The notes under the pieces: generated by a model
Database searches by the model: none
Seen by the model: only the letters and a program-made list of their open reading frames with translations
What the model was told of the DNA's origin: nothing
Shown: positions 9,914 to 12,449 of the stretch, in pieces
Numbering within the stretch: position 1 is the first letter of the stretch
Layout of the letters: each line of letters begins with the position of its first letter
Made by a program: the position numbers and the translations under genes
Virus genome (UHGV): UHGV-0116345
DNA: 12,449 nucleotides
Reading direction: 5' to 3' (one strand)
Origin: a virus

Positions 9914-10272
9914 ACGAATATCAGTTTGTGCTTCCATACCCGCCGTCGGTGAACACCTACTGGCGAAGACGGGGAAGCCAATACTACATCAGCGATAAAG
10001 GCCAGAAATACCGAAAAGACGTTCAGCAAATAATCCGCCAACTCAAGTTAGACATTTTCACCAAATCAAGACTCCGCATCAAAGTCATCGCAGACGTTCC
10101 AGACTCCCGCCGCCGCGACCTCGACAACATCCTGAAAGGTTTCCTCGACTCCCTTATCCACGCCGGATTTGCGGAAGACGACGAGCAATTCGATGACATT
10201 CGCGTAATTCGTGGTGTGAAAGTACCAGGCGGACGGCTTGGAATAAAAATCACCGAACTGGAGAACGTATGA
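9910..10272 (+). CDS. rusA: RusA Holliday-junction resolvase, 120 aa
   Basis: MNEYQFVLPYPPSVNTYWRRRG...DSRRRDLDNILKGFLDSLIHAGFAEDDEQFDDIRVIRG...GGRLGIKITELENV has the RusA signature (catalytic Asp cluster RRRDLDN, C-terminal GGRL). AGGAGG RBS upstream. Confidence 0.9.
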   Translation: MNEYQFVLPYPPSVNTYWRRRGSQYYISDKGQKYRKDVQQIIRQLKLDIFTKSRLRIKVIADVPDSRRRDLDNILKGFLDSLIHAGFAEDDEQFDDIRVIRGVKVPGGRLGIKITELENV

Positions 10273-10412
10273 ACAAAGCATTCGAACGATATATGCGCCA
10301 GCGTTATGGCAATCGCTATGACCTGACGCGAGATGTTGAAGGTTTCTACTGTAGTGAAATTGTGAAACGAATGTTTGAAGTTTGGTGTCATTGCAAAGGA
10401 TGGGAGGTCTGA
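10269..10412 (+). CDS. ylcG-like micro-ORF, 47 aa (MNKAFERYMRQRYGNRYDLTRDVEGFYCSEIVKRMFEVWCHCKGWEV)
   Basis: ATG 10269 overlaps the rusA stop (ATGA) and its stop TGA 10410-10412 overlaps the ATG of the Q-like gene (TGATG). This is tight translational coupling in the same arrangement as rusA-ylcG-quuD in DLP12 (recollection). Below the ORF-track length cut-off. Confidence 0.5.
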   Translation: MNKAFERYMRQRYGNRYDLTRDVEGFYCSEIVKRMFEVWCHCKGWEV

Positions 10413-11026
10413 TGCGGCTAACTCCAGTATTCAGCATGGTTAACTTCATTAATGACGCGCACTTTCGCCGCGTATGGAGACACCCGAAGAAAACCATCAA
10501 CTCTAGCCAGAAAGCATGGGTTCATTACATGTTACAGGTATGGGGCAAGGTTAATACCGGAGATTGCTCTCCAGGTGGTGCAATTAACGTTATCGGTCGT
10601 CTGATGATTCGCAGTCAGTGGAGCGATGACAAGGCTAAGCAGATAGAGTCTGTCGTCATGCGCCTGTACGAAGAAGATGGGCTGCGCGGAGATGAGCTAT
10701 ACAAGAAAGCTCGCGAACTGGTCATTCCTCAATCATCGTTTAGCCACATCATCACTCTCGCCAAAGAATCAGATGATGCGGCTTTCGTTGAACGTGTGAT
10801 GGTTAAAACGTTTCACCGTGAAAGCCCTGTCCGCGATGTAGCTATTAAGCGATATTGCAATCGCAATTGCACGCAAGATATAGCCAGGATTATTTCTTAT
10901 ATAACAGGTGCTGATATTCAGTATTGTCGTAAGCGAGTGGTGTGGTGTGAGAAAGTGCTGGAGTCAGAAATGTTTTATGCAATGAAACGAGAATTGGAGA
11001 AAGAATTTCCATTAATAGCGGCCTGA
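10412..11026 (+). CDS. Putative late-gene antiterminator (Q-like), 204 aa
   Basis: Position between rusA/ylcG and the lysis cassette, followed by a promoter-like region and intrinsic terminator (PR'/tR' architecture). Cys-containing C-terminal region (CNRNC...C...C). Start ATG 10412 with GGGAGG upstream (track ORF begins at TTG 10382). Not similar to lambda Q as recalled, so the family is unassigned. Confidence 0.5.
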   Translation: MRLTPVFSMVNFINDAHFRRVWRHPKKTINSSQKAWVHYMLQVWGKVNTGDCSPGGAINVIGRLMIRSQWSDDKAKQIESVVMRLYEEDGLRGDELYKKARELVIPQSSFSHIITLAKESDDAAFVERVMVKTFHRESPVRDVAIKRYCNRNCTQDIARIISYITGADIQYCRKRVVWCEKVLESEMFYAMKRELEKEFPLIAA

Positions 11027-11100
11027 ACTGAAATAATTTTGTAAATGCGTTGCTTCCGAGAAATGAAAGTGGTATTTTTTGTATATGCTCGGAGCAAAAG
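11027..11100 (+). promoter_or_regulatory. Candidate late promoter PR' / Q-utilisation region
   Basis: Candidate -35 TTGCTT / 17-nt spacer / -10 TATTTT around 11051-11084, immediately downstream of the Q-like gene and about 100-130 nt upstream of the terminator at 11185-11212. Hexamer assignment is tentative. Confidence 0.3.
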
Positions 11101-11184
11101 CGAACTGAGCAGTGAAATTGAAATCCTGATTTCCCCGGTCGTCGATAATATTTAGGGTCGACATACTGGCTAGATTAGGTAAGA

Positions 11185-11212
11185 GCCTCGGCAGAAACGT
11201 CGGGGCTTTTTT
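11185..11212 (+). terminator. Rho-independent terminator (tR'-like) ending a short PR'-proximal transcript (6S-RNA-like)
   Basis: Stem GCCUCGGC (11185-11192) / GUCGGGGC (11199-11206), 8 bp including two G-U pairs, 6-nt loop, followed by TTTTTT (11207-11212). Confidence 0.65.
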
Positions 11213-11542
11213 GTTTGCATAACAGGTAAGAGCATTGAACCCGCAGACCTCGCGGAATTGGTGAAAGGTGCCGCGCAGTGCTCTTATCGTTGTGGTGAAT
11301 GCGCAGGCTGATGCGCGAAAGACATTGCAGCTATTGCGGAAAAGAGCTGTTCGGCGGGGCAATTAAACGCCCGTGAGAGTCTGAAATAACCGCAAGCCGG
11401 AGATCAGCACCGGTCGCCACAATCCAAACTGAGCCGTAGCCACTGGCTGTCCTGAATTCATCAGTGATAGTTACGCTGCGGCCTTCTTTTTTCCCTTCCC
11501 AATATAAGAACTACGCAATCCGTTACTGGCGGAGGCGTTGCT

Positions 11543-11758
11543 ATGAAATCAATGGACAAAATCTCAACTGGCATTGCCTACGGCACCTCCGCAGGCAGTG
11601 CTGGCTACTGGTTTTTACAATGGCTTGATCAGGTTAGTCCGTCTCAGTGGGCTGCGATTGGTGTACTGGGAAGTCTGGTTCTGGGCTTTCTGACTTATCT
11701 GACGAATCTGTACTTCAAAATCAGAGAAGACAGAAGAAAGGCTGCGAGAGGAGAGTAA
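11543..11758 (+). CDS. S: Phage-21-type pinholin S with dual-start motif (Met1 antiholin / Met4 holin), 71 aa
   Basis: [71 protein letters not shown] matches the phage 21 S / DLP12 EssD class as recalled. Two TM segments and a charged C-terminus; M1-K-S-M4 dual start. Confidence 0.85.
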
Positions 11759-11762
11759 TATA

Positions 11763-12107
11763 ATGGTCCAAAACTATGAAATGATTGTGAAAGGGATCCG
11801 CAATTTTGAGAATAAAGTTACGGTAACTTTAGCATTACAGGACAAAGAACGCTTTGACGGTGAAATTTTTGACCTGGACATCTCGCTGGACCGTGTTGAA
11901 GGTGCCGCGCTGGAGTTTTATGAGGCAGCAGCCAGAAGGAGCATCAGACAGGTCTTCCTGGATGTTGCTGCCGGGTTATGTGGAGGGGATGAGCAGTCGC
12001 CGGAAAAGCGCCCCATAATTTTAGAGGCGCAGAGTGTGTGGATAACCTACAAAGGAAAACTGCCGGGAAGAATTACTGGTTCACTGAAGACTCCGCCGAA
12101 ATGGTAA
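11763..12107 (+). CDS. Hypothetical protein, 114 aa, directly downstream of the pinholin (position occupied by ydfR-type small genes or the endolysin in related prophages)
   Basis: ATG 11763 is 4 nt after the S stop, with GGAGAG upstream. Not an endolysin: no SAR/signal segment and no lysozyme motifs. Family not recognised. Confidence 0.5.
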   Translation: MVQNYEMIVKGIRNFENKVTVTLALQDKERFDGEIFDLDISLDRVEGAALEFYEAAARRSIRQVFLDVAAGLCGGDEQSPEKRPIILEAQSVWITYKGKLPGRITGSLKTPPKW

Positions 12108-12345
12108 TTTCACCAGCATATTTTTCCTCCAGTAATACCGCCAGCCACTTGAAAGAATTTTGTTGTTGCTGGGACCATTTGGGATTGATTGATTCAAGCT
12201 GGAGCGATGCCAGTGTTGGTTGCATTTGTTCCTTGGGAATTGAGAATGCCAGATATGAAAATGCGACAGTAAGGGCATTTACATCATCCCGAAGCCTGGA
12301 AATGCAGTCGAGCAACTCCTGTAGAGAAATGGTGCTATTGTCCAT
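12073..12345 (-). CDS. Hypothetical protein, 90 aa, antisense to the late operon (moron-like); convergent with the 114-aa gene and overlapping it by 35 bp
   Basis: Minus-strand ORF in track (TTG 12351); preferred start ATG 12343-12345 with AGAGAGGA 6 nt upstream. Candidate own promoter upstream (-10 TACAAT at 12360-12365, -35 TTGAAT at 12385-12390, 19-nt spacer). Q/E/L-rich, no TM segment. Confidence 0.45.
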   Translation of the reverse strand: MDNSTISLQELLDCISRLRDDVNALTVAFSYLAFSIPKEQMQPTLASLQLESINPKWSQQQQNSFKWLAVLLEEKYAGEITISAESSVNQ

Positions 12346-12449
12346 AAACAATCCTCTCTATTGTATTTAACTATTCCTTGCCTGATTCAACAGGCCGGGA
12401 CAGATAAACATATCCAGGGATTCGGAACCGATAAATCCTGATAAATATC

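Follow-up and report, generated by a model that had tools for sequence, protein, structure and literature searches.

The window, by which we mean the whole stretch of 12,449 nucleotides of UHGV virus genome UHGV-0116345 that was analysed, ends in the front part of a lambdoid late region. A late-gene antiterminator gene and a terminator-like hairpin are followed by a pinholin gene of the phage 21 type, a YdfR-family gene and a small convergent gene. The features are listed below in order along the window.

10412-11026, plus strand: Q-like late-gene antiterminator gene, 204 aa (PHROG 753, 'anti-termination protein Q-like', E 2.3e-67)
11181-11210, plus strand: intrinsic-terminator-like hairpin with T run, from a consensus scan, at the tR' position between Q and S
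11543-11758, plus strand: S21-type antipinholin/pinholin gene, 71 aa (Pfam PF04971; identical to phage 21 S)
11763-12107, plus strand: YdfR-family (DUF1327) gene, 114 aa (Pfam PF07041, PHROG 406)
12076-12345, minus strand: convergent gene of 90 aa (PHROG 2411), its 3' end overlapping the 3' end of ydfR
12407-12449, plus strand: conserved 5' leader of an endolysin gene, the window stopping 1 nt before the R start codon of its relatives

Late control region and pinholin gene

A Q-like gene is annotated at the equivalent position upstream of the holin gene in the relatives of this region. The hairpin lies about 155 nt past the Q-like gene of the window and has a 12-bp stem with six G-C pairs, followed by TTTTTTGTTT; it would act as tR', by analogy with phage 21, for which pR' and a terminator are annotated at the equivalent place. 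Unlike in phage 21, no tRNA genes were found between Q and S (from the hairpin to S), and an Rfam scan of positions 10000-12449 returned nothing credible.

The 71-aa product of the holin gene matches the Pfam family 'Bacteriophage P21 holin S' (PF04971, E 8.6e-36, profile positions 1-63 of 64) and is 100% identical over 71 aa to S of Escherichia phage 21 (OL657228), whose annotation names the two products S21-71 antiholin (antipinholin) and S21-68 pinholin. The sequence GGAGG is found 7 nt upstream of the start, and the reading frame opens with ATG AAA TCA ATG (M1 K2 S3 M4, the protein starting MKSMDK), a dual start that gives S71 from the ATG at 11543 and S68 from the ATG at 11552; M1 and M4 are invariant in an alignment of seven homologues. 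Both transmembrane segments predicted for such a protein are present in the sequence. The first (residues 8-27) is only weakly hydrophobic (mean Kyte-Doolittle value 0.16), rich in Gly, Ala and Ser (60% G/A/S/T) and SAR-like, while the second (residues 36-57, mean 1.44) is an ordinary transmembrane segment and the putative pinhole-forming one. The assignment of S to the phage 21 pinholin class with an M1/M4 dual start, made in a preliminary description of the window, is borne out by the PF04971 match and the identity to phage 21 S.

The window as a whole is a mosaic. Its early, replication and Q regions are close (98-99% identity) to the E. coli E10/CE10 prophages, the immunity region matches another group, and a switch at the holin start (about 11548) leads into a late region of the phage 21-like/O157 type. 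The whole mosaic was found in no single record by megablast against complete E. coli genomes and phages, by exact look-ups of the toprim, Cro and Q proteins, by a junction pattern run against viral contigs, or by comparing the final 49 nt with collections of genomes, viruses and metagenomes. Where lambda has rexAB, with N on one side and cI on the other, the window carries two minus-strand genes (1474-2226 and 2223-2780) that resemble the PADLOC candidate defence system PDC-M24, with a full-length match to component B at E 4.7e-10 and a weak one to component A at E 4.8e-4. The first of the two genes shows a weak DUF1828 match in relatives.

The window edge and the endolysin of relatives

The preliminary description was headed by the statement that the pinholin gene is followed not by a SAR endolysin gene but by a gene for an unknown 114-aa protein. 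As an account of the letters this was accurate, given the identity of the holin, the featureless 114-aa protein and the null search of the window for lysozymes. The 114-aa protein has no hydrophobic, transmembrane or signal segment (the best 19-aa Kyte-Doolittle mean is 0.69), and a sequence scan of it found no E-x8-D-x5-T motif. Searches of the window in all six frames by tblastn with lysozymes of the 177-aa and the 165-aa type returned only noise (best E 0.16), so the endolysin gene is absent from within the window, on its plus strand as elsewhere.

The picture changes when the relatives are read past the last base of the window. Nine loci that encode an identical YdfR align with window positions 11548-12449 over the full length at 98.9-99.2% identity, and a tenth (L011) aligns in two pieces with an IS21 element between them. 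In all ten a 177-aa Phage_lysozyme gene starts 344 nt past the ydfR stop codon, equivalent to window position 12451, a start on which gene calls and BLAST coordinates agree in every locus. In the coordinates of the relatives the window ends at 10687 and the lysozyme ATG lies at 10689, 2 nt past the window end; the aligned continuation in four of them (L001, L002, L003 and L005) reads 'C ATG AAC GCA AAA ATC', encoding MNAKI and onward. Between ydfR and the lysozyme gene the relatives have a spacer, which the last 342 nt of the window match at 98-99% identity; in 16 of 17 loci with this spacer an intact 177-aa lysozyme gene comes next. The final 43 nt also occur without the spacer, in front of lysozyme genes in many E. 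coli genomes. This alignment of the relatives past the window end would put the start codon of the endolysin gene at window position 12451, and the appearance of a pinholin without an endolysin is thus most probably due to the edge of the window and not to biology.

The source genome would be expected to continue beyond 12449 as its relatives do. It very probably carries an intact endolysin gene of the RrrQ type from about position 12451, for which the relatives predict a reading frame beginning ATGAACGCAAAAATC and running for some 177 aa, with Rz/Rz1 behind it. The preliminary heading is misleading, since in the relatives an endolysin gene with SAR-type features stands immediately beyond the position equivalent to 12449 and the 114-aa gene is a normal member of the cassette, an arrangement the description had itself named as the one that would overturn its reading; for the source genome the same arrangement is predicted by extension.

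The other course considered in that description was an interrupted or decaying lysis cassette, in which a cryptic prophage had lost or displaced its endolysin gene and left the pinholin orphaned. The missing lysozyme homologue in the window fits such a history, as do related prophages that have themselves decayed: rrrQ is frameshifted in L146, IS21 lies in the holin gene of L011, IS3 lies in ydfR of L147, and an inversion breaks the holin gene of L018. Against this, no damage is seen in the S, ydfR and convergent genes of the window, each of which has a good ribosome-binding site. Over 1000 complete E. coli genomes, and sequenced phages as well, share the arrangement, the spacer matched by the last 342 nt leads into an intact 177-aa lysozyme gene in the loci counted above, and a window that stops 1 nt before the expected ATG would produce just such an absence. 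We therefore regard decay of the cassette as very improbable.

The 177-aa lysozyme of the relatives has a glycoside hydrolase 24 lysozyme domain (PF00959 in the gene calls) and matches the endolysin family PHROG 7 (E 2.2e-63). It aligns with R21 (PDB 3HDE, E 1.6e-16; also 3HDF) and with RrrD (4ZPU), and residue 12, the first in the R21 alignment, lies within the N-terminal SAR segment. That N-terminus reads MNAKIRYGLSAAVLALI(G/A)AGASAPQIL. In all five sequences inspected, K4 and R6 precede 19 residues with a Kyte-Doolittle mean of 1.65-1.87 and 42-53% G/A/S/T, and all five have the triad E35-x8-D44-x5-T50 at positions equal to those of the R21-type enzyme. Work on phage 21 and P1 has established N-terminal and triad features of this kind as hallmarks of SAR endolysins. 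The 177-aa lysozyme of the relatives is accordingly a predicted SAR endolysin, on its sequence features and its homology to R21.

Cassette order among relatives and known phages

All ten loci with the identical YdfR present the same succession of YdfR (114 aa), a 90-aa protein encoded on the opposite strand, Phage_lysozyme (177 aa), Phage_lysis (Rz) and Bor. A called S21-type holin gene precedes ydfR in nine of them, and L011 has IS21 in its place. E. ruysiae has exactly the layout of the window, including Rz with an embedded Rz1 lipoprotein gene. Of 5426 complete E. coli genomes, 1053 contain the spacer at a coverage of at least 80%, and conservation of the cassette arrangement likewise extends to over 1000 complete genomes of this species. 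The spacer is found in some cassettes and missing from others that are otherwise nearly identical. Among the loci that were fetched the following orders were seen, in counts that are biased because many of the loci were fetched via YdfR itself.

Holin, 165-aa lysozyme: 27 loci
Holin, ydfR, convergent gene, 177-aa lysozyme: 16 loci
Holin, ydfR, 177-aa lysozyme: 9 loci
Holin, ydfR, convergent gene, different lysis module: 1 locus

One locus (L019) has the identical holin gene directly before a 165-aa R21-type lysozyme gene, without ydfR. The single locus with a different module is the phiSTEC1575-Stx2k prophage of E. coli STEC1575 (L143, 1-3342), in which the S21-type holin, YdfR and convergent genes are followed by two further holin-family genes and an M15 metallopeptidase gene, without a lysozyme gene; judged by its gene content it is a hybrid lysis cassette that combines a pinholin with a putative endolysin not of the SAR type. 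In one relative (L018, 17012-18405; L154, 5132-6525) an inversion splits the gene for the S21 holin and abuts a gene for a pertussis-toxin-S1-like (Scabin-like) ADP-ribosyltransferase that comes from a second prophage late region.

The placing of ydfR between a class II holin gene and a lysozyme gene is seen in Qin, mEp460, Stx2 phage 86, Chlobot, E. ruysiae and 25 fetched loci. The K-12 example is the cryptic prophage Qin (b1556-b1553), where essQ, ydfR, rrrQ and rzpQ/rzoQ stand in the same order as in the cassette type of the window, with ydfR 4 nt past the stop codon of the class II holin gene and then a 177-aa lysozyme and the spanins. The holin and YdfR of the window are 83% and 70% identical to their Qin counterparts, and the lysozyme DNA of the relatives is 92% identical to rrrQ. 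Qin differs in that its ydfR encodes 103 aa and has a stop codon overlapping the rrrQ start, whereas the window has a 114-aa YdfR with another C-terminal tail, a spacer of about 340 nt with the convergent 90-aa gene before R, and the phage 21 allele of the holin gene in place of essQ. The preliminary description had offered, besides decay, an accessory insertion like that of ydfR in Qin with the endolysin gene further downstream, and this second suggestion agrees with the DUF1327 match, the Qin gene order and all ten identical-YdfR loci.

Phage 21 itself has the order S21, R21, Rz/Rz1, bor. Its S protein and dual start are identical to those of the window, and the Rz/Rz1, bor and downstream TonB_C genes of the relatives of the window cassette are 98% identical to those of phage 21. 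In phage 21, however, the gene for R21 (165 aa) overlaps the S stop codon, and ydfR and the convergent gene are absent. By BLAST of the relatives against phage 21, the block of ydfR, convergent gene and 177-aa lysozyme gene replaces R21 exactly from the S stop to the Rz start; on sequence comparison this is the neat exchange of a module, gene edge to gene edge, that lambdoid mosaics typically show. Phage 933W (S, R of 177 aa, ant, Rz) has an S21-family holin, the same 4-nt gap after S as the window and an R that is 89% identical to the lysozyme of the relatives, but lacks ydfR, so that S is followed directly by the 177-aa R. A YdfR-family gene, in some cases of 268 aa, with an antisense reading frame before R, is present in Stx2 phage 86 and in Stx1a and Stx2c phages. 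In mEp460 the order is holin, YdfR family, 177-aa lysozyme and Rz, with a 104-aa YdfR and without the antisense spacer, while Escherichia phage Chlobot has the layout of the window (holin, a 114-aa YdfR that is 94% identical, a 90-aa antisense gene and lysozyme). In all three sequenced phages (mEp460, Stx2 phage 86 and Chlobot) R is followed by Rz.

The YdfR-family protein and the convergent gene

The ydfR reading frame begins 4 nt past the S stop codon, with the Shine-Dalgarno sequence GAGGAGAG upstream. The 114-aa protein that had been called unknown is matched by Pfam DUF1327 (PF07041) at E 1.9e-42 and 143.9 bits (cut-off 25) over profile positions 1-92 of 93, and by PHROG 406 at E 6.5e-66, and RefSeq gives near-identical copies of it the product name 'YdfR family protein'; the guess in the preliminary description that it might be DUF1327/YdfR-like is thereby upheld by all three sources. 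Taken together, the observation made there is confirmed and its interpretation partly supported. The assembly collection has 4603 indexed blocks with an identical 114-aa YdfR, and the family comprises 315 clusters whose names are almost all Escherichia and Shigella, a single entry labelled Enterococcus being probably contamination.

Similarity between the 114-aa protein and K-12 YdfR (70% identity) is confined to residues 1-75. The family as a whole is conserved over residues 1-75 only, and its C-termini vary to give forms of 103/104, 114/116, 176/183 and 268 aa. An AF2 model of the 114-aa protein has three beta strands and one helix (residues 5-73) followed by a disordered tail. Forms of 268 aa with a long extra C-terminal region are encoded in Stx2 phage 86 (L141, 2501-3307) and from position 21812 onward in L017. 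The 114-aa YdfR of the window looks like a long form cut off where the convergent gene begins.

The K-12 protein interacts with residues 1-597 of RNase E in a bacterial two-hybrid assay, for which YdfR residues 1-72 are enough, and co-purifies Rne1-598 together with DNase-resistant nucleic acid; its overproduction changes few transcripts and causes neither a growth defect nor lysis (PMC13232886, RNA Biol 2026). These interaction data come from overexpression and two-hybrid work on a protein 70% identical to that of the window, and no phenotype accompanies them (PMC13232886). The YdfR of the window retains the conserved residues 1-75, which span the part sufficient for the K-12 interaction, and the folded, conserved core of the protein (residues 1-73) coincides with residues 1-72 of the interacting fragment. 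Because of the K-12 interaction data and this overlap, we rank a cytoplasmic accessory protein that may act on RNase E or RNA above a lysis protein. By analogy with its K-12 homologue, the likeliest role for YdfR is that of a cytoplasmic binder of RNase E and perhaps of RNA.

A functional part in lysis, in which YdfR is no passenger but, for example, times the pinholin from the cytoplasm or serves RrrQ-type SAR endolysins specifically, has several points in its favour. The gene occupies the exact S/R junction with the 4-nt spacing that separates S from R in 933W, and the overlap of the Qin ydfR stop with the rrrQ start suggests translational coupling. A genetic screen cited in PMC13232886 tied ydfR to envelope integrity. 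Among the fetched loci ydfR accompanies the 177-aa lysozyme in 25 and the 165-aa R21 type in none of 27, an association whose counts are biased since many loci were fetched through YdfR. The protein, however, has no transmembrane or signal segment, and in phage 21 the identical pinholin operates together with R21, as does the 177-aa R in 933W with its own holin, in both cases without YdfR. Only about 101 phage records carry YdfR, compared with about 440-460 that have this holin or lysozyme type, and overexpression of the K-12 protein brings about neither a growth defect nor lysis. A lysis component is an unlikely identity for YdfR on this balance; cassettes may have or lack the gene at the S/R junction, and lysis does not require it.

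The product of the convergent gene matches PHROG 2411 (E 3.8e-59) and is labelled 'hypothetical protein' in RefSeq. Its reading frame is open in 11 of 11 variants at nucleotide identities as low as 74%, with dN/dS values of 0.22-0.53 that indicate purifying selection, and three variants carry breaks in the overlapping sense frame; GAGAGGA lies 7 nt upstream of its ATG. It is probably a real small gene. Its family numbers 64 clusters, again named almost entirely for Escherichia and Shigella, and one partial entry labelled Pseudomonas is probably contamination. A plus-strand reading frame of 110 aa at 12038-12370 was considered as a gene and rejected: it mirrors the convergent gene, and its frame is broken in three of eight variants.

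The block of ydfR and convergent gene might instead be a moron-type insertion expressed from the prophage, the 90-aa gene serving the lysogen as an accessory unrelated to lysis (for example in host fitness or against other phages), with transcription that could dampen read-through into R. The selection on the convergent reading frame across 74-99% nucleotide identity and its own ribosome-binding site are consistent with this, as are a solitary homologue in E. coli EC15 (L145), which neighbours an autotransporter gene and belongs to no lysis cassette, and the coming and going of the spacer among near-identical cassettes. On the other side, a consensus scan for a promoter of the convergent gene gave nothing above shuffled expectation, the 90-aa protein has no Pfam family and no PADLOC match, the fold of its AF2 model (four helices) matches only generic helical proteins and is uninformative, and no expression data were found. 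We consider this a minority possibility.

With high probability, then, a standard lambdoid lysis cassette of the Qin/RrrQ type begins in the window and is cut off by its end. Late transcription would start downstream of the Q-like antiterminator gene and read through the tR'-like terminator to reach the S21 gene first, whose dual start would give the S71 antipinholin and the S68 pinholin. The transcript would continue into the YdfR-family accessory gene and the spacer of about 340 nt with its convergent gene, then into the gene for the 177-aa SAR endolysin (ATG at 12451) and on to the Rz/Rz1 spanins. Lysis would be expected to proceed as in phage 21, with the pinholin depolarizing the inner membrane, the membrane-tethered SAR endolysin being released and activated, and the spanins finishing the outer membrane. 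The parts that YdfR and the convergent gene would play in this scheme we infer from the comparisons above.

A more far-reaching proposal, to which we give little credence, is that YdfR-family proteins are late phage proteins acting on host RNase E or on RNA, for example to tune or protect the long late transcript, including expression of the endolysin, and that they are genetically locked to RrrQ-type SAR endolysins. The convergent PHROG 2411 gene, inserted in the 3' end of ydfR and expressed in the lysogen, would throttle leaky read-through into R by antisense transcription, and the two together would form an unrecognized regulatory layer of pinholin/SAR cassettes. The order S, ydfR, R, Rz is in any case already known and annotated, for example in K-12 Qin, and its genes are routinely named by PGAP. 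The apparent anomaly of a pinholin without a SAR endolysin most probably vanishes once the edge of the window is taken into account.
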